DNA of 64,000 nucleotides. Origin: Nibricoccus sp. (GTDB lineage Bacteria > Verrucomicrobiota > Verrucomicrobiia > Opitutales > Opitutaceae). Below the pieces are notes generated by a model that saw only the letters and a program-made list of their open reading frames with translations, ran no database searches and was not told the origin of the DNA. The translations under genes were made by a program, and so were the position numbers. Below are positions 28,651 through 41,796 of this stretch, one piece after another (positions within the stretch are counted from its first letter, which is position 1; each line of letters begins with the position of its first letter). The stretch spans positions 3,360,001-3,424,000 of the forward strand of contig JASGHG010000001.1 in NCBI GenBank assembly GCA_047602425.1. The letters are read 5' to 3'.

Positions 28651-29145
28651 TCAGTAGCGATCCATGATCTGATAAAACAGCCAGTAGGTGCCCACCGTGA
28701 CGAGGGCCGAGGCGGAGGCTGCGGCGATCTGCGTCTCCTGCATGGGAGGAAAATAAAAATATGCGCCCCAGATGAGACCGTTCAAGAGCACCACGGAAAA
28801 AAGAAAGTCACGTCGCCGCCGATTGGGCAGGCTTTTGAGCTTTTTGCGCGGCACCTGGGCCTCGGCCGCGGCGTTTTCCAGGAGAATTTGGTCCACTGAG
28901 ATGGTTTCGGTATTCGTTTCCTCGACCACCTCGATCTGTTTGGCTTTGAGCGAAAGGCTCTTCTTTTGCGGAAAAAACCTGGCAAGTAGTTCGGGTATTT
29001 CCCGCACGGCTTTCCAATCCTCCGTGCCCTCCGGTGCAAGCTGGGCGTCGGCGTCGAAAACGCGAACGGAGGCCATTTCTTCGAGAGCGGCATCGCTGAA
29101 GGGACCAGTTATTTTTTCACCAACTTTGAGGCGGAAGCGGGGCAT
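28651..29145 (-). CDS. GYF_2 (DUF4339)-like domain membrane protein
   Basis: N-terminal GPFS..ALEEM......DAQLAPEGTEDWKAVREIPEL pattern; two C-terminal TM helices. Confidence 0.7.
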   Translation of the reverse strand: MPRFRLKVGEKITGPFSDAALEEMASVRVFDADAQLAPEGTEDWKAVREIPELLARFFPQKKSLSLKAKQIEVVEETNTETISVDQILLENAAAEAQVPRKKLKSLPNRRRRDFLFSVVLLNGLIWGAYFYFPPMQETQIAAASASALVTVGTYWLFYQIMDRY

Positions 29146-29167
29146 GGTATTTGGAGACAGGCAAATA

Positions 29168-29632
29168 CTAACCTGTTGATCCTGATGGCTGCAAACCGAG
29201 TTTTTTGGCGAGACGGCAAAGCTCGGATTTTTCATCCGCCGTCAAAACTGCAAACTCAGCGGCGATGCGAGCGGCGACCTTCGGGAAAAGTTTTGCGATC
29301 AGGCCGCGGCCGCGCGGTGTGAGGCTGACCGTAATGAAACGCAGGTCGTCGGGTTGACGCACGCGTTTGATCAGCCCGGCCTTCTCAAGATTGCTGATCA
29401 CGAGTGTGAGATTTGCGGTGCTTTTCAGAAGTTTGGAGGCGAGCGACCCCTGACAAAGCGGCCCGAGATGGAAAAGCGTTTCCAAAACGGCGAACTGCGT
29501 AACGGTTAAATCGGCCGGAAGCGTTTCATGCACACGCGAAGTGACGGACTCAGTTGCGCGGCACAATTTAATGTACGCATCCAAGGAGGCGATTTCAGCC
29601 GGAGATCCTTGATAATGCGTAGGCATGTCCAT
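29168..29632 (-). CDS. MarR-family transcriptional regulator
   Basis: LTVTQFAVLE, NLTLVISNLEKAGLIKR...DDLR...VSLTPRG winged helix. Confidence 0.93.
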   Translation of the reverse strand: MDMPTHYQGSPAEIASLDAYIKLCRATESVTSRVHETLPADLTVTQFAVLETLFHLGPLCQGSLASKLLKSTANLTLVISNLEKAGLIKRVRQPDDLRFITVSLTPRGRGLIAKLFPKVAARIAAEFAVLTADEKSELCRLAKKLGLQPSGSTG

Positions 29633-32428: not shown

Positions 32429-35206
32429 TTATTCGGCGCTGATCTTGAACGGAATCGTCACGCGGGAACGTGCGGGCTTGCCGCGAACGGCGCCGGGTTT
32501 GAAGCGCCACTTGGTCGCAGCAGCCAGGCAGGCTTTGCCGAAGGCAGGGCTCGAAGCCTGTTCGACTTTGAGGTCGGTCGGGATGCCGTCCTTGCCAACC
32601 ACGAGCGAGATGAGCGCTGAGCCGCCTTCGGCGCGCTGACTCGTCGAGAGATCGGGATCAGCTTGTGCGATCGGAGTCGGACGCTCGTCGAGTTCGCTCA
32701 ACTTCATCACGCGATCCGAATCCTGCATGAGGCCGTTGAGCGTAAGGGTCTTTCCGCTCTCAACTTTACCAGTTAGCGTAACTGGGTCGCAGCCGCGGTA
32801 GGTGAGGGTAAAGCTCACGTTGCCGGGCGGGATGCCGTTGATCGTATGAGGCGTGGTGCCGATTTTGACTTGGTTGTCGCGGAGAATTTCAGCGCCTTGC
32901 GGGTTGCTGTTGATGACGACCGTGCCACCGGAGAACTCGCCATTCACGCGGCTCGAACCGTTGCGTTCGACCGTGACGGTTGTGGTGTAGGCTGGCCAAT
33001 TTGGACGGCTGATTGTCACCTGATAGGATCCGACGGGCAGACCGGTGAGGGACGCAGGTGTCTGACCTGTACGCACGTCACTCGGATTGAAGAACAGCGT
33101 GCCGGCAGGTTTAACCTCGTAAGCGAGGTTGCTCGGATCGCTGCTCAGTTCGATGGCACCCACCTGACGTTTCAGGACAACGGTGCCGAGATCGGTCGTT
33201 TCCTTGTCTTTGATCTCGAAGGTACGGGTTTCGCTATCGTAACCCGGCATCGAAATGGTCGCGGTGTAGGGCCCGAGGCGCATGTCCTTGATGGTAAGGG
33301 GCGCGGTCTTGGTGCCGTAAATATCCACATTAACGGAGGCGCCAGCGGGGTCGGTGGCAACCACGAGAATACCGCGGCCGTAAATGAACTTGTTGCGCTC
33401 CTCGTCCTGACGTTTGCGCAATTCCTCAAGTTCACGCGCACGTTTGATCTCGGCTTCTTTTTCAGCCAGTTCGCGTGCTTTGCGTTCTTCGTCAGCCTTG
33501 CGTTGTTGTTCGGCGAGCTCGCGTTCCTTGGCCTTGATTTTGGCCTCGGTTTCAACGCGGATGCGCTCACGCTCCTTGGCTTCGGCCTCGGCCTTGCTCT
33601 TGCCGCTGATCATGAAGAACGCAGCGACGCCGATGACGGCGGCCACGCCGATCACGATCGGAATCAGCATATTGCTCTTCTTGGGCGGGAAAGGGGCCGC
33701 GGTGGCGGGCTTGGAGCCGCCGCTGACGACCGGAGCCGGGGAGGGTTTGGCGGCAGGAGCTGGTTTGGCCGGCTCGGGCTTCGGAGAGGGCTTCGCTGCG
33801 GGGGCCGGCGCAGCGGGCTTGGCTGCGGCGGCGGGTTTGGCGGGCTCAGCTGGTTTGGCTTGGGCGGGCGGGGTGCCAGCCGGTTTGGCCGGCGGCGTGG
33901 CGGGCTTGGCCGGCTCCGCCGGTTTGGCGGGCGGAGTAATGACAACCGCGGGTTTCGCCGGCGCAGGGGGCGTGGCGGGCTTGGCGGGGGGCGTTGCGGC
34001 CTTGGGCGGGTCTTGAATGATGGCCGGGATCACCGCGGGCTTGGCGGGTTCGGCTGGTTTTGCGGGGGCGGCGGGCTTGGCCGGCTCCGGAAGGATGGCC
34101 GGGATCACCGCGGGAGGCGGCGTCGCGGGTTTGGCCGGGGTCGGCTCGATCAAGATCGCCGGGATGATCGGAGCTGCGGCGACCGGAGTATTGGTAAGAA
34201 TGGGATTCCACGGGCGGACACCGCCCGGTTGGGCGAATTCGTGGGTGGCAACAGCATTGAGCACACCGAGCCACGAGGGAGAAATGTCAGCCGCGCTGAG
34301 GCCCGCGCCGAACGCGAGGCCGCGACCGCTGGCCCATGCGGAGATATCAGGCGCGAATGGCGCGAGGCCGGTGCTTTTCGCGAGAGCTTGATTGATCCAG
34401 GCCTGGCGGGCGAGAAGGCCGGCGCAAACAAACTGGGCGGGATTGCCAAGGCCGGGGAGCGCGCCTTTGATGGCGGTGGCAAGTGGTTCGACGATGGCGG
34501 TGGAGGTTTCGCTGAAATCGTACGAATCGTTAAACATCAGACGGCCGGCGGAGCCCTTGAACTTCAGGCCGAGGGCGGTCTGGGTGGAACCAGCGAGTGT
34601 ATCCAAGCCGACCGGTACGGTGGCCAGTGCGGTCACGCCCTGGCTCGATATCGCGATCAGGGTCGAATTGTTTTCCGAAACCTCGACGAGGAGGACGGTG
34701 TTCGTTTTCGCCGCGGTGGAGATGGCGCCTGCCAGGGTGAGCGGTGCGGATTGGCAGCGAACGAGTTCAAAGGTCCAACCGCGGAGCTTGCCGAGGGATT
34801 CTTCCGTGTTGGTGGAAGGCGAGGCGTCGAGCGCCCAGCGTGCACCGCCTTGGGGAACGAGTCCAGTGCCGGCGCCGAACCAAGCCCAATTGGCGGGCAT
34901 GTTTTCCGCGCCCAGTGTGGTCCGGAGAAAGTTTTCGACCGCGTCGGGAGTGGCGACGCTCTTGCCTTGGGCGGCATCGGCCAGAAGGGTGCTGCGAGCT
35001 TTAAGGCGGAGCAGGGCGGTGGCTTTGGACCCGCCGCCGGCAGGGCGCAGCTCGTTGATCACGGCATCGGTTGCCGCCGAATCGCCAAGCCATACTTCCT
35101 TGATGGCCTCGATGGTGCGGGGCTTGGGGCCAAGAGTGGCTCGGGCAATTACCAAATTATATTCACCCAGTTCGACGAAGAATCCGATAGAGTCTGAAGC
35201 GCTCAT
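32429..35206 (-). CDS. Multidomain membrane protein: PilM/actin-like domain, Pro-Ala-Lys linker, TM, coiled coil, 3xPEGA, TonB C-terminal domain
   Basis: TonB_C (LVVGKDG...AATKWRFKPG...GKP..SRVTIPF); three PEGA-type repeats (G.L.V.TDPAGA, IELSSDP, VINSNPQGA...G.TP); single TM at aa 513-533; N-terminal ~320 aa follows the PilM motif order. Confidence 0.85.
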   Translation of the reverse strand: MSASDSIGFFVELGEYNLVIARATLGPKPRTIEAIKEVWLGDSAATDAVINELRPAGGGSKATALLRLKARSTLLADAAQGKSVATPDAVENFLRTTLGAENMPANWAWFGAGTGLVPQGGARWALDASPSTNTEESLGKLRGWTFELVRCQSAPLTLAGAISTAAKTNTVLLVEVSENNSTLIAISSQGVTALATVPVGLDTLAGSTQTALGLKFKGSAGRLMFNDSYDFSETSTAIVEPLATAIKGALPGLGNPAQFVCAGLLARQAWINQALAKSTGLAPFAPDISAWASGRGLAFGAGLSAADISPSWLGVLNAVATHEFAQPGGVRPWNPILTNTPVAAAPIIPAILIEPTPAKPATPPPAVIPAILPEPAKPAAPAKPAEPAKPAVIPAIIQDPPKAATPPAKPATPPAPAKPAVVITPPAKPAEPAKPATPPAKPAGTPPAQAKPAEPAKPAAAAKPAAPAPAAKPSPKPEPAKPAPAAKPSPAPVVSGGSKPATAAPFPPKKSNMLIPIVIGVAAVIGVAAFFMISGKSKAEAEAKERERIRVETEAKIKAKERELAEQQRKADEERKARELAEKEAEIKRARELEELRKRQDEERNKFIYGRGILVVATDPAGASVNVDIYGTKTAPLTIKDMRLGPYTATISMPGYDSETRTFEIKDKETTDLGTVVLKRQVGAIELSSDPSNLAYEVKPAGTLFFNPSDVRTGQTPASLTGLPVGSYQVTISRPNWPAYTTTVTVERNGSSRVNGEFSGGTVVINSNPQGAEILRDNQVKIGTTPHTINGIPPGNVSFTLTYRGCDPVTLTGKVESGKTLTLNGLMQDSDRVMKLSELDERPTPIAQADPDLSTSQRAEGGSALISLVVGKDGIPTDLKVEQASSPAFGKACLAAATKWRFKPGAVRGKPARSRVTIPFKISAE

Positions 35207-35415
35207 TATGTTGAAGATACGTAGAAAGCTTTTTAGAAAAGAGGCCCGCCTGAGGCGTAATCTCTAAATAACTGCTGTAAAGGTAAAAGTCTTTGTGTCG
35301 TTGTTATTTTTTGAGTATAGGCTTGAAAGTCTGGTGAGGTAAAATCACCAGATTTACGAGAGATTGACGTTGTCTAGATTTCCCCTTCCGACAGAATGTA
35401 TTAACTGAAAGACCA

Positions 35416-38400
35416 GTGAGCGCCAAAATCCTGCTAGTTCAACACAGCGACATGCTTCGCCAAGCCAGATCTTTGATCTTTGGCGGGGCCTTTTTCCATG
35501 CATTGTCATTGCGAGAGGCATCACAGGTGAACGATTACTTGGCGCGTGAGACGGTGGACGTGATTTTGGCGGATTGTCGGGGGGCGGATGCAAATGGTTT
35601 GGATTTTGTTGAGGCATTACGCAAGGCTCAACCGCGTGCAAAAGTGATTCTTGTGGCCGATGGTTTGGATTTGCCCACGGTGGTTCGTGGCATCCGTCTG
35701 GGAGTTAAGGATGTGTTCCAACCACCGCTCGACATCGAGGCGATGACCAAGCGCATCACGGACTTTATCGCCAAAGGCGACGGCGCGGGCGAAGCGTTGC
35801 GCAACGCCGACTGGAGTTCACTCGAAGATTTCTTCCAAGGTGGCAGCGGCACTCCTGCCGCCGAGGTTGCAGCCAAGACTCCGCCGCCCAAAAAAGATCG
35901 CGCGAAACCGTCGTCTATTGAGAGCGACGCGGTGCGGGAAGAACTGGCCAAGGAACGCGCCACTCTTTCGACGGAACGCGCCCGCATTGCCGAGGAAGCC
36001 AAAAAGGTCGAGCAACGTGTTGCCGCGCTTGAAGCCGAGCGCGCCACCGTGGCGGCCAACATGGCCAAGCTCGCCGACATTCAAAAAGCCGAGGCAAAAC
36101 TCAAGCAGCGTGAAGACGCACTGGTTTCTGCTCAAGAACGTCTCCTGATGGATCAGGAGAAACTTGATGCCGAACAAGCGATGGTGAAACAAAATGCGGC
36201 GAAGAAAAAAGCCGACGACAGCGCCGCCGAAGCCGCCGAACGCAAGCGTTTGGAAGAGGAAAAAGAACGCCTTGCCGAGGAAAGCGCCGCTCTTGAGGCC
36301 GCCCGCAAGGAAATCGCCGGAGCCGAGAAAAAACTCGAAGAACTTCGCATCCTCCAAAAACAGCAGGACGCCGCGGCCAAGGCGCTCAAACAGGAGCGCG
36401 ACGCGCTCGCTGCCGAACAAGAGCAACTGGCCCAAGAACAGGCGAATCTGGCCGCAGCCCTCAAGGAGCTCGACCAAAAGCGCAAGGCTGGAGAAACCCG
36501 CCAAAAGGAAATTGAGAAGGAGCAGCAGCGTCTCTCTGACATGGAGGCCTCGCTCATGGCCGATCAGGCCGCGCAGAAGAAATCCGAGCAACGCATCGCC
36601 GCCGAACGCGCCGAACTTCAAACCCAACTAGATGCTGTAGCTAAACGCGAAGCCGGAATCCGCGAAAAAGAAAGCCAGGCCAAAGCCTCGGTCGACAAGG
36701 CCAAGGCCGATGCCGATGCTCTCGTGGCCAAGGTTCGCGCCGAAGTTGCCGCCGAACGCGCGGCGCTCGCCGATTCTGAAACCGCTGTGGTGGCCGAGCG
36801 GGCCAAGCTCAAGAAAGCCGAGCAGAAGCTCGCCGTCGAAAGCACCGAGGTTGAACAACAAGCCGCCCTGCTCGCCGACCGCGAAGCGGCCTTGGCTGCT
36901 CAAGAACAGCAGATCAAGGCCAAGATGAGCAAGGCCGAGTCCGAGGCCGCCGCCCTCGTGGCCAAAGCCAAGGCCGATGCCAACAAAGAGCAGGCCCGCC
37001 TCGCCGATGCCGAAGCGGCGATCGAAACCGAAAAGGTCGCTCTCAAACAGGCGCAGCAAAAACTTTCGACCGACCAAGATTCCTTTAAGAAAAACGCCGC
37101 CACCTTTGCCGAGCGCGAAACAGCTCTCGCCACTCGTGAAAAGACGCTTCGCGACGAACAGGCCAAGGCGAAGGTCGAATTTGAAGCGGCACAGGCAGAA
37201 GCCGCCGCCATTCTTAAGAAAGCCAAGGCCGACGCCGAACAGGAGCAGCGCAAAATCGCCGAAGGCGAAGCCGCCCTCGTCGCCGCCAAGGCCGCGCTCA
37301 AGAAATCCGAACAGCAGGTTGTCACCCAGCGCACTGAACTCGAGGAAATGGAAGCCTCGCTTTCGGAACGTGAAGTCCTGATCAAACAGCAAGAGACAAA
37401 AGCCAAGACCGCCGTCGACAAGGCACAGGCCGAGGCCGACGCACTGCTCAAGAAAGCCAAGGCCGACGCCGAAAAGGAACAGCTCAAGCTGGCTGAACTC
37501 GAGGAATCCATTCTCACCGAGAAAAACGCGCTCAAGCAAAACGAGCAGCGCCTCGCTGCGGAACAAGCCGCGCTCAAGAAAAAGGCCGACGAATTTGCCG
37601 CCCGCGAAACCGCGCTCCGCGAACAAGAGGCCAAGGCTAAAAGTGCGCTCGAAAAAGCGAACACCGAGGCATCTTCGATCATCGCCAAGGCGAAAGCCGA
37701 GGCCGACAAGGAGCAGCAGGCGCTCGCCGAGATGGAAGCGTCGCTCTCCGCCGAGAAGGAAACGCTCAAGAAAGCCGAACAGCATTACGCCAAGGAGCGC
37801 ATCGAAATTCAGACGCAGATGGATCAGCTCGGCGAACGCGAAGCCCTATTGATTGCCCGCGAGTCGAAACTCAAGCAGCAGGAGACGCAACTCGCCACGG
37901 CGCTCGACAAAGCCAAGGCCGAGGCCGACACCATTATCAAGAAAGCGAAAGCCGAAGCTGAAAAAGAACAGGCCAAGCTTGCAGAACTGGAAACGTCGAT
38001 CGCGACCGAGCGCGCCACGCTTAAGAAGAACGAACAGAAACTTCTCACGGAGCGCGCCGAGCTTGAAGAACATTTGGCCACGCTCGAAGTTGAGAAGAAG
38101 AAGCTCGCGACCGATCAGGCTGCGATGAAGAGGCTGGCCGACGAAGCTCGCGCCAAAGTCGAAGCCGAACTCAAAGCCGGCAAGGACGCTATTGCCAAGG
38201 AAAAGTCCGAGTTCGCCAAACAGCGTGTCATCGTCGAGGAAGAACTCGAAACAGCCCGCTTGTCGGTTTCGCAGACCGAGAAAAAACTCAAAGCCGATCA
38301 GGAAAAAATCGCCGCCACCGAGGCAAAGATCAAAGCCATGGAGGCCAAGGTCAAAGCCGAGCAGGAGGAAGTCGAACGCATTGGCGCGGAAGTCGAAGCC

Positions 38401-38691
38401 TCACAAGCCAAACTCAAGGCCGATCTCGCCAAGGTCGAAGCTGCCAACAAGAACTTTGCCAAGAAGGAAGCCGAACTCGCCGACATCGAGTCGAAGCTCC
38501 AACTCGAAGAAGGCCGCTTGAAAAAGGAAGCCGCGAAATTCGCCCAGGAACGCAGCCTGTGGGAAGCCGAAGTGGGTTCCTTCCAAGACGAGAAAAAGAA
38601 GTTCGTCGATGCCACGGCGCAGTTCGAAAAACGCCGCAAGCAGGTTCTCGAACAGGCCAAGGCCCTCTTGGAACGCGACGCCGCGGGTTGA
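35416..38691 (+). CDS. Atypical receiver domain plus ~900-aa coiled coil (AglZ/FrzS-like architecture)
   Basis: KILLVQH...VDVILAD...NGLDFVEALR...KVILVA...G...GVKDVFQPP receiver fold, then a continuous E/K/A/Q/L coiled coil; GTG start. Confidence 0.88.
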   Translation: MSAKILLVQHSDMLRQARSLIFGGAFFHALSLREASQVNDYLARETVDVILADCRGADANGLDFVEALRKAQPRAKVILVADGLDLPTVVRGIRLGVKDVFQPPLDIEAMTKRITDFIAKGDGAGEALRNADWSSLEDFFQGGSGTPAAEVAAKTPPPKKDRAKPSSIESDAVREELAKERATLSTERARIAEEAKKVEQRVAALEAERATVAANMAKLADIQKAEAKLKQREDALVSAQERLLMDQEKLDAEQAMVKQNAAKKKADDSAAEAAERKRLEEEKERLAEESAALEAARKEIAGAEKKLEELRILQKQQDAAAKALKQERDALAAEQEQLAQEQANLAAALKELDQKRKAGETRQKEIEKEQQRLSDMEASLMADQAAQKKSEQRIAAERAELQTQLDAVAKREAGIREKESQAKASVDKAKADADALVAKVRAEVAAERAALADSETAVVAERAKLKKAEQKLAVESTEVEQQAALLADREAALAAQEQQIKAKMSKAESEAAALVAKAKADANKEQARLADAEAAIETEKVALKQAQQKLSTDQDSFKKNAATFAERETALATREKTLRDEQAKAKVEFEAAQAEAAAILKKAKADAEQEQRKIAEGEAALVAAKAALKKSEQQVVTQRTELEEMEASLSEREVLIKQQETKAKTAVDKAQAEADALLKKAKADAEKEQLKLAELEESILTEKNALKQNEQRLAAEQAALKKKADEFAARETALREQEAKAKSALEKANTEASSIIAKAKAEADKEQQALAEMEASLSAEKETLKKAEQHYAKERIEIQTQMDQLGEREALLIARESKLKQQETQLATALDKAKAEADTIIKKAKAEAEKEQAKLAELETSIATERATLKKNEQKLLTERAELEEHLATLEVEKKKLATDQAAMKRLADEARAKVEAELKAGKDAIAKEKSEFAKQRVIVEEELETARLSVSQTEKKLKADQEKIAATEAKIKAMEAKVKAEQEEVERIGAEVEASQAKLKADLAKVEAANKNFAKKEAELADIESKLQLEEGRLKKEAAKFAQERSLWEAEVGSFQDEKKKFVDATAQFEKRRKQVLEQAKALLERDAAG

Positions 38692-40772: not shown

Positions 40773-41058
40773 ATGCGCGCACTATGGAGTGCCAGCTTGA
40801 GTTCAAGCGGAACGAATTGGGTGCTTGATATTGAGACGGACGACGGGTGCCAACCTGTTGAAGCCGGATTTTTTGAGGCTGACCTCACCGCCGTACTTAG
40901 GCGGTTGTGGCTTTTAAGTTTTTGAATTCACTGAGTATCGCTGGAAATGTCGGTTTTTATAACGTTTGCCTGCGCTTACTTAGGCCATGCTGACGGGATG
41001 CGATGTCGGGCGGGGTTATATTCATAGAGGCATAGATAAATTTAACCCAACTTCCCCA

Positions 41059-41796
41059 ATGAAAACGCTCCATGGCTTTGCCCTGTTGTTGGCGGGACTC
41101 TTGGTGAGCCCGGCCCTTTCGCCAGCGGTTTTTGCCGCCGAGGCTTCGGATAAGAGACTAGCAGTGATACAGACCACCGAACCATTCGTGCGCACCAGGA
41201 TTGCCCAAGTCCTGCCCGCCCACGCGCAAGTTCGTTTGTTGATCAACGTGGACGCGACCGGAAAGCTCGTCGACTGGTTGTTGCTCGATTATTCCGAATC
41301 GATTTTTGCCGACGCCGTTGTGGACGCGGTGAAGCAGTGGAGATTCGATCCGGCGACTTACAAGGGCACGCCCATCGGCACGCGGACAACGCTGGTCTTC
41401 AATTTTGAAACAAATGGGCAGGTCGTATCGATGACTTGCCTGGATATGATCGATGCCTACATGAAAAACTTTACAAAGGACCAGATGGTGAAATGCGTGG
41501 TTCCGGGCAAGGAACTGGACTCCGCACCAAAGCCATTGGTTATGGTTTCGCCGCTGGCGATTCCGGCCGAACTAGCGGCCGGCGCCTCGGGTGTCACGGT
41601 CGATTTTTATATCGACGAAACCGGACGTCCCCGGATGCCCGCGGTGGATGTGAAGGAAAACGATCCGATGGCCCTGGCGTCGCTCGCCGCGATCGAGCAC
41701 TGGCGGTTCACGCCGCCGACGAGCAAAGGCCGCCCGGTCACTGTTAGAGCAACTCAGTGGTTCGATTTCAGCAAGACGACGGTTGCGGCAAAATAG
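41059..41796 (+). CDS. Secreted TonB-family protein with two TonB C-terminal domains
   Basis: Signal peptide; VDATGKL...AVKQWRFDPA and IDETGRP...AIEHWRFTPP..KGRPV repeats. Confidence 0.8.
   Translation: MKTLHGFALLLAGLLVSPALSPAVFAAEASDKRLAVIQTTEPFVRTRIAQVLPAHAQVRLLINVDATGKLVDWLLLDYSESIFADAVVDAVKQWRFDPATYKGTPIGTRTTLVFNFETNGQVVSMTCLDMIDAYMKNFTKDQMVKCVVPGKELDSAPKPLVMVSPLAIPAELAAGASGVTVDFYIDETGRPRMPAVDVKENDPMALASLAAIEHWRFTPPTSKGRPVTVRATQWFDFSKTTVAAK

Follow-up and report, generated by a model that had tools for sequence, protein, structure and literature searches.

PilM belongs to the alignment ring of the pilus as a fixed component, and GspL of type II secretion joins an actin-like cytoplasmic domain to a membrane helix and a periplasmic domain. 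The pocket of PilM takes up a conserved N-terminal motif of PilN (PMC5805733), and PilM is bound by PilB (PMC11580455). The Myxococcus xanthus proteins FrzS and AglZ are described as an N-terminal receiver without the phosphorylation residues followed by a very long coiled coil (PMC9811614, PMC11135422); in FrzS, the receiver is the docking domain and the coil gives polar localisation (PMC9811614). Placement of the pilus machine in Pseudomonas aeruginosa needs AMIN, FimV, and PocAB-TonB3, of which FimV/HubP and PocAB-TonB3 are single-pass, envelope-anchored positioners and TonB3 has a TonB-type C-terminus (PMC5285504). The single-pass, TonB-like ExeB (ExeB/GspB) of type II secretion binds the N0N1 domains of the secretin (PMC4098917), and GltG and GltJ of the Agl-Glt machinery carry a cytoplasmic domain, a disordered linker, one helix, and an end resembling the TonB C-terminal domain (PMC11761067). 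Here, we describe a gene pair in a 64,000-nucleotide stretch of Nibricoccus sp. (Opitutaceae; GenBank assembly GCA_047602425.1, contig JASGHG010000001.1, positions 3,360,001 to 3,424,000), hereafter the window. Gene 1 encodes a PilM-PilN-derived membrane protein and gene 2 a pseudo-receiver with a long coiled coil; the module is real, conserved, built from known parts, and apparently undescribed.

Gene 1 was compared with each of these systems. It shares with type IVa PilM-PilN (2ych, 5eou, 3jc8, and natural PilMN fusions) the fold, the PilN-type motif, the membrane helix, and the periplasmic stalk, and it is sister to Opitutales PilM. In contrast to PilM-PilN, it lies outside any pil operon, has a Pro-rich tether inserted, carries PEGA-TonB_C or lectin-like domains in place of the PilN periplasmic domain, and is always an extra copy beside a canonical PilM, linked to a receiver-coil gene. 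GspL matched structurally (Z 9.9; 4pht), but gene 1 is much closer to PilM, has a long tether and a different head, and lies outside any secretion operon. Unlike FimV/HubP and PocAB-TonB3, gene 1 has a PilM-derived cytoplasmic domain and no cognate ExbBD pair beside it, and no LysM or TPR match was obtained with Pfam in gene 1 or the family heads examined. In contrast to ExeB/GspB, it has a large cytoplasmic actin-fold domain and an exchangeable head, and no ExeA partner was seen. It resembles GltG and GltJ in layout but has a PilM fold instead of the FHA or ZnR-GYF domain, no match to the AgmX/PglI-type tail, and no linked Glt or Agl genes that could be seen. TonB_C is shared with the energy transducers TonB and TolA (not family-wide), and their Ser-x3-His face is absent from gene 1. 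Gene 2 was likened to FrzS and AglZ by architecture, kinship being seen only at the level of generic receivers; it differs in a predicted beta-hairpin for helix 1, in a genome in which no MglB was found, and in having a PilM paralogue rather than a TPR or GYF protein as its genetic partner.

Gene 1 (P0001; 925 residues) occupies 32429..35206 on the minus strand and gene 2 (P0002; 1091 residues) 35416..38691 on the plus strand. They are separated by a divergent, AT-rich spacer of 209 bp (35207..35415; 38% G+C versus 58% for the window) with conserved blocks, in which shared promoters are likely. In an alignment of 10 close relatives, 42 spacer positions were invariant, as was the GTG start of gene 2; a sigma-70 promoter scan of the spacer was at chance level (1 found versus 1.0 expected). 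The two reading frames, the spacer, and the domain order given in an earlier note on this DNA were all borne out. Named relatives were Nibricoccus and other Opitutaceae.

The two genes are a conserved, co-inherited module. When the search started from gene 1, the partner was adjacent in 45 of 51 genome loci, with four loci offering too little upstream sequence and two lacking it; the 45 pairs were divergent (33), in tandem with the partner first (11), or in tandem with the fusion first (1). One pair (L202) overlaps by 4 bp. Starting from gene 2 in metagenomes, the fusion was adjacent at 68 of the best 80 of 108 loci, the contigs being partly redundant, while 10 were uninformative and 2 had no fusion. 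A survey of 131 Opitutaceae genomes at least 95% complete, in which presence classes were assigned from bit scores and frame lengths (16-31 candidates scored per genome) and kin are not independent, so that Fisher P values overstate, found the fusion in 47 genomes and the partner in 36: both occurred in 33, the fusion only in 14, the partner only in 3, and neither in 81, so that 114 of 131 had both or neither. In all 33 genomes with both genes, these were adjacent on one contig within 6 kb. The linkage and co-occurrence that the earlier note had proposed as a check therefore hold, and the unlinked genes with independent distributions that it had named as its refutation were not found. Flanks change, the window neighbours lying within 8 kb of the pair in at most 19 of 51 loci. 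All 20 well-supported splits of the receiver tree recurred in the PilM-domain tree; such agreement is expected, because linkage and vertical descent alone predict it.

The partner turned up in 3 of 8 genomes of the family and in none of 142 others from the phylum. The fusion is patchy within genera, and in a genome of another Opitutales family (G042) the pair is present with one gene between. Three fusion-only genomes of one genus carry a 230-residue coil-only gene in tandem with the fusion. On position and a match by eye, these were classed as partner remnants; the partner tail profile scored 10-14 bits on them, no better than a generic coil. For inter-protein mutual information, an underpowered comparison of 69 non-redundant pairs (effective number 24), the highest z was 4.4, and five shuffles reached 3.9-4.7. 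In one genome (G156), a second copy of the fusion (L222:9674-11734) lies about 22 kb away from the first and has no receiver-coil gene next to it.

The cytoplasmic domain of gene 1, approximately residues 1-324 (34235..35206, minus strand), has an actin fold of the PilM/FtsA type, as seen by profile search, AlphaFold model, Foldseek, and VIA-align. Pfam offered no family for this domain of the window protein, and a PDB search with a single sequence returned nothing useful. Residues 1-340 matched the PilM-like open reading frame (ORF) of the genome's own pilMNOPQ operon, and a 14-sequence profile gave M. xanthus PilM as its best PDB match (E 0.007), PilM making up 4 of 6 matches. The AlphaFold model was of high quality (pLDDT 89; predicted template modelling score 0.91), and Foldseek, a check suggested in the earlier note, placed PilM on top (E 8e-15). 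VIA-align superposed the model on PilM 2ych over 302 residues (Z 19.8; root-mean-square deviation 4.2), and the Z ranking ran from PilM (19.8 and 19.0) through FtsA (17.3), MreB (11.4), and BeeR (10.6) to GspL, the filament-forming actins MreB, FtsA, and BeeR all falling below PilM. The PilM/actin-like label of the earlier note stood for the fold, which is not MreB-like.

Gene 1 scored below the cut-offs of Pfam PilM_2 and TIGR01175, a test that does not discriminate because canonical Opitutales PilM fails it too. In a quick tree of 79 rows, 52 fusion domains formed one side of a branch with an SH-like approximate likelihood ratio support of 91, and the other side held 2 full PilMN fusions together with 24 PilM of Opitutales. 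This domain of gene 1 is a paralogue of PilM with a fold of the PilM/FtsA subtype, in a clade of its own beside Opitutales PilM. The canonical nucleotide motifs were used to compare what remains in the PilM-like sequences: the fusions keep E12 in 50, G177 in 34, and G263 in 43 of 52, and Opitutales PilM is similarly degenerate. A fusion-specific conserved patch, L[GN]LKF[RK]G[SA]A[AV][RK]LFFN, is unlike canonical PilM. Gene 1 was not part of any pilMNOPQ operon. A frameshift divides the canonical pilM of the same genome (G000:C1:1634845-1635883; L126) into two ORFs, one of 176 and one of 228 residues, whereas congeners have it intact; either an error in the long-read assembly or recent decay to a pseudogene could account for this. 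Two further proteins (P0049, P0052) combine the PilM-like domain of this clade with a helical region; they match nothing in Pfam, show no clear membrane helix, and are possibly a soluble third variant.

Behind the PilM-like domain, gene 1 carries a fused PilN-like N-terminal motif, W-N-P-I-L (residues 333-337; 34196..34210, minus strand). In Opitutales operons, pilN overlaps pilM; behind 24 pilM genes, 23 pilN were found, and the N-terminus of all 23 products reads WH-x-x-[FLC]-R. Of 52 fusion homologues, 51 have W at the matching place, and the longer patterns W[HNQ] and W-x3-[WLF] hold in 39 and 45, respectively. A structural match to the PilM:PilN1-12 chimera reaches model residue 340 (chain residue 366), and the match to 2ych stops at residue 324. 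The chimera match fits a PilN-like motif bound in cis, but it is no proof, because several unrelated rows also extend to 340. Downstream on the minus strand follow a Pro/Ala-rich cytoplasmic tether of about 171 residues (33671..34186; 33% Pro, 29% Ala), the only hydrophobic helix of the protein (approximately residues 514-534; 33605..33667), and, judged from sequence, a short periplasmic Glu/Lys/Arg-rich helix at the position of the PilN stalk (33386..33601). Ser-x3-His in the membrane helix is the TonB motor motif. The helix of gene 1 lacks it; no His was present in the helices of 13 orthologues, and Ser-x3-His occurred in 1 of 74 helix windows, past the hydrophobic stretch. The head consists of three PEGA domains (32723..33373; Pfam E 1e-24 over three stretches) and a TonB_C domain (32438..32659; E 5e-9).

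The PilN periplasmic domain that pairs with PilO is gone from gene 1, which has PEGA-TonB_C, or in homologues other heads, instead. Gene 1 is a duplicated pilM-pilN fusion whose PilN periplasmic part has been swapped for an exchangeable head. Among the best 150 representatives of a profile search, 74 were at least 600 residues long; these had PEGA plus TonB_C (45), PEGA only by the query used (5), an unnamed domain (11), LamG (3), or no match (10). The last group comprised three sub-threshold ConA-like heads (DUF1349, GH43_C2), four with no family, one truncated protein, and two without a membrane helix. TonB_C was missing in about 21 of the 74 that retain the membrane helix. The partner was retained in tandem at the swapped-head loci L095, L096, L099, and L100; because heads swap while the partner stays, the conserved core of the fusion is cytoplasmic. 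The unnamed head, found in a clade that includes Rariglobus-labelled records, had no Pfam match, and Atlas gave a weak lead only (Bgal_small_N on 12% of one cluster, score 0.88). In two proteins (P0023, P0036), the PEGA repeats are interrupted by an additional domain of about 170-250 residues. In the swapped-head clade (L095, L099, L100, L222, L224), the same downstream gene, with the start M-x-x-EPI-x-[FY], was present even where one gene of the pair is lost. Elsewhere in the family, complete natural PilM-PilN fusions that keep the PilO-pairing domain (L047:7651-9867, L048:7729-9375) stand in second pilus-type operons, with pilO- and pilP-like genes behind them.

Gene 2 starts with an atypical receiver (35416..35835, plus strand; Pfam Response_reg, E 6e-10) with a conserved W-x-x-L-x-x-F helix. 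In an alignment of 49 receivers, Asp53 was invariant (49/49), Arg55 and K/R/Q at position 9 were each present in 48, the acidic pair was missing, and the conserved Lys was found in none (0/49). The model (pLDDT 91) has a beta-hairpin in place of helix 1. The sequence and structure matches were generic receivers among the rows shown; FrzS was not among them, which does not exclude kinship. The rest of the protein is a coiled coil of about 920 residues (35923..38679, plus strand; 921 residues without proline) with repeats of 78/85 residues and a conserved FE-x-R...LL helix at its end (about 38617-38679). Orthologues range from about 450 to 1840 residues with both ends conserved; a regular expression for the C-terminal tail matched 28 of 41 complete partners, and 12 of the 13 misses show the motif by eye. 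Pfam and domain-model scans found no kinase or output domain in either gene. The earlier description of gene 2 as AglZ-like holds for the architecture of pseudo-receiver plus long coil and not beyond it; the nesting of the distribution within that of Opitutales-type PilM points to the pilus-associated FrzS, a paralogue of AglZ, rather than to AglZ itself. A shorter receiver-coil paralogue of 471 residues (G000:C1:2939080-2940495; L125) is widespread among family members and shows no linkage to the fusion. Paralogues of about 1550 residues, unlinked to any fusion, occur in G029 and G035 (L050:5966-10615, L051:822-5474), and matches of similar length were found in G207, G238, and G239.

A second PilM-family match was present in 47 of 47 fusion genomes, and the fusion was found in none of the 22 genomes without such a second match, among them G269, G214, and G286, whose congeners have the fusion. 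The own genome encodes 8 T2SSE-family ATPases, 3 secretins, MreB, FtsA, BeeR, and flagellins; the secretin of its pilMNOPQ operon has an N0 domain and no AMIN match. A link to the flagellum was uninformative, flagellin occurring in 13 of 14 pair genomes and also in 30 of 37 family genomes.

A scaffold role across the envelope, as the earlier note proposed for the pair, is plausible. We tentatively read gene 1 as an envelope-anchored docking post for a type IV filament (pilus) machine, positioned in the cell by its partner, whose role would be like that of FrzS in Myxococcus; we regard this as quite possible though short of probable. The PilM fold, the kept PilN-like Trp motif, the lost PilN periplasmic domain, the swappable head, the co-inheritance, and the constant presence of a second PilM-family gene support it. 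In such a protein, the fused peptide would occupy the PilN pocket in cis and hold the domain in its PilN-bound state. Because the PilN domain that pairs with PilO is gone, the protein would not enter the PilMNOP ring but act beside it. The head would grip the envelope, TonB_C perhaps by strand addition to a protein of the outer membrane, for example at a secretin N0 domain or a TonB box, and lectin-like heads by binding the wall or a periplasmic glycan. The PilM domain, free on its tether of about 170 residues, could bind either the partner or the ATPases of the pilus motor. With a continuous coiled coil, the partner would measure about 135 nm; it may dock through its receiver, and its coil or conserved tail may localise it, probably to a pole. 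The module would be a static anchor and landmark without a motor. Each proposed step has a precedent elsewhere: the binding of PilM by PilB, the polar beacon FrzS, pilus placement by AMIN, FimV, and PocAB-TonB3, and the binding of secretin N0N1 by TonB-like ExeB. Also counted in favour were the own secretin, with its N0 domain but no match to the AMIN that P. aeruginosa needs for placement, and the FrzS-like lack of the acidic pair and Lys in the receiver.

Several observations weigh against this docking post. Fourteen of 47 fusion genomes have no full partner and 3 of 36 partner genomes no fusion, so neither gene is obligatory for the other. Of the 109 PilM-bearing genomes, 62 have no fusion, and the pilus machine therefore does not need it. 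Five of the 22 PilM-less genomes were rechecked: neither pair gene was found, and PilB/PilT-type ATPases were present. Next to the pair, pilus genes were seen neither in the window nor in those flanking ORFs that were read, the flanks not having been systematically scanned for pilus families, and nesting within PilM-bearing genomes may reflect kinship or ancestry instead of function. Phosphorylation of the receiver could also still occur, since Asp53 is kept throughout.

The PilM fold may instead have been co-opted for a pilus-independent envelope tether that fastens a long coiled-coil filament in the cytoplasm to the wall or outer membrane and serves cell shape, division, or the identity of the pole. 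We consider this somewhat unlikely. The lack of pilus genes seen beside the pair would suit such a tether, as would a partner of widely varying length with conserved ends, like a spacer or filament, the departure of the fusion-specific patch from canonical PilM, the rank of FtsA as second-best fold, and the coil-only remnant that stays in tandem with the fusion in one genus. However, the fusion never occurred without a second PilM-family gene, its patchiness within genera is unlike that of a core shape or division gene, MreB and FtsA are encoded separately, and a link to the actin homologue BeeR was rejected, as there was no co-occurrence (9 of 14 pair genomes versus 25 of 61 overall). It is unlikely that the pair is a new trans-envelope cytoskeletal anchor, in which the PilM-fold domain would capture a self-assembling coiled-coil filament of 70-270 nm and the exchangeable periplasmic clamp would fix it to the wall or outer membrane, giving Opitutales a lineage-specific scaffold for adhesion, polarity, or surface motility in which pilus assembly is not involved. 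Distinctly less credible is that the genes are co-regulated neighbours that share a promoter region and a physiological condition while their products do not act together. In some lineages a lone gene does persist at the locus (the fusion in 14 genomes, the partner in 3), and linkage with vertical descent suffices for the tree congruence, but the linkage outlasts inversion to tandem in both orders as well as changing flanks, and most genomes have both genes or neither.

The earlier note took the gliding focal adhesion as its model. In such an analogue, an ExbBD/TolQR-type motor would drive the TonB_C protein along an AglZ-like cytoplasmic platform and so move the cell. AglZ, described as receiver, Pro-rich sequence, and long coil, and the single-pass GltG and GltJ with their TonB-CTD-like ends (PMC11135422, PMC11761067) resemble the pair in outline, and the own genome has 5 MotA/ExbB-family genes, MreB, and 20 TonB-dependent receptor matches. 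The search for ExbB/D that the note called for thus found such genes, but none for a motor was seen adjacent to the pair. As the closest one, the model nevertheless gave way, given a PilM paralogue with a PilN-like peptide, a TonB_C domain that is replaced at loci that retain the partner, and a helix without the motor motif. In the own genome, MglB was not found (PF03259, 0 matches), no Roc/MglA-type GTPase exceeded the cut-off of PF08477, which is only a proxy for MglA, and neither gene 1 nor the genome gave an AgmX/PglI-type, that is GltG/J-type, C-terminal tail (NF033768) above cut-off; the GYF gene of the window was rarely near the pair. We therefore regard gliding as very improbable. Equally little credence is given to trans-envelope signalling, in which the head would sense the state of a glycan or receptor and the PilM domain would pass this on to a receiver that can be phosphorylated: the exchangeable lectin-like heads and invariant Asp53 would be expected of it, but the Pro-rich linker of about 170 residues between helix and PilM domain, the receiver without acidic pair and Lys, and the absence of a kinase or output domain from both proteins argue against it.

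Searches of the open-licence literature on pili, PilM, and pseudo-receiver coiled coils in Opitutaceae and Verrucomicrobia turned up no description of the module; such proteins could appear in the supplements to comparative surveys of type IV filaments. PilM is here duplicated, fused to its own PilN-like peptide, tethered, and provided with at least four kinds of periplasmic head, and a FrzS/AglZ-shaped protein is kept with this PilM derivative in about a quarter of the sampled Opitutaceae genomes (33/131). If the docking-post reading is true, the module would show envelope landmarks evolving from machine parts, and a beacon made of pseudo-receiver and coiled coil that works without the MglA/B switch. 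It offers two concrete genes for work on pili and polarity in Verrucomicrobiota, a phylum for which our searches of open-licence papers yielded no molecular studies of these parts.

Two other genes of the window were considered as parts of the module and rejected. A GYF domain binds AglZ in Myxococcus; the small GYF_2 gene at 28651-29235 (minus strand) lay within 8 kb of the pair in 5 of 51 loci. The gene at 40987-41796 (plus strand) for a double-TonB_C protein was near the pair in 2 of 51. Elsewhere in the genome, the BeeR-family actin (G000:C1:81902-83056; L124) scored above its curated cut-off, and a cluster unlinked to the pair (G000:C1:1112366-1122384; partly L127) lies next to a TonB-dependent receptor and encodes ExbB, two ExbD-like proteins, TonB, two small membrane-coil proteins, and a protein with TPR.

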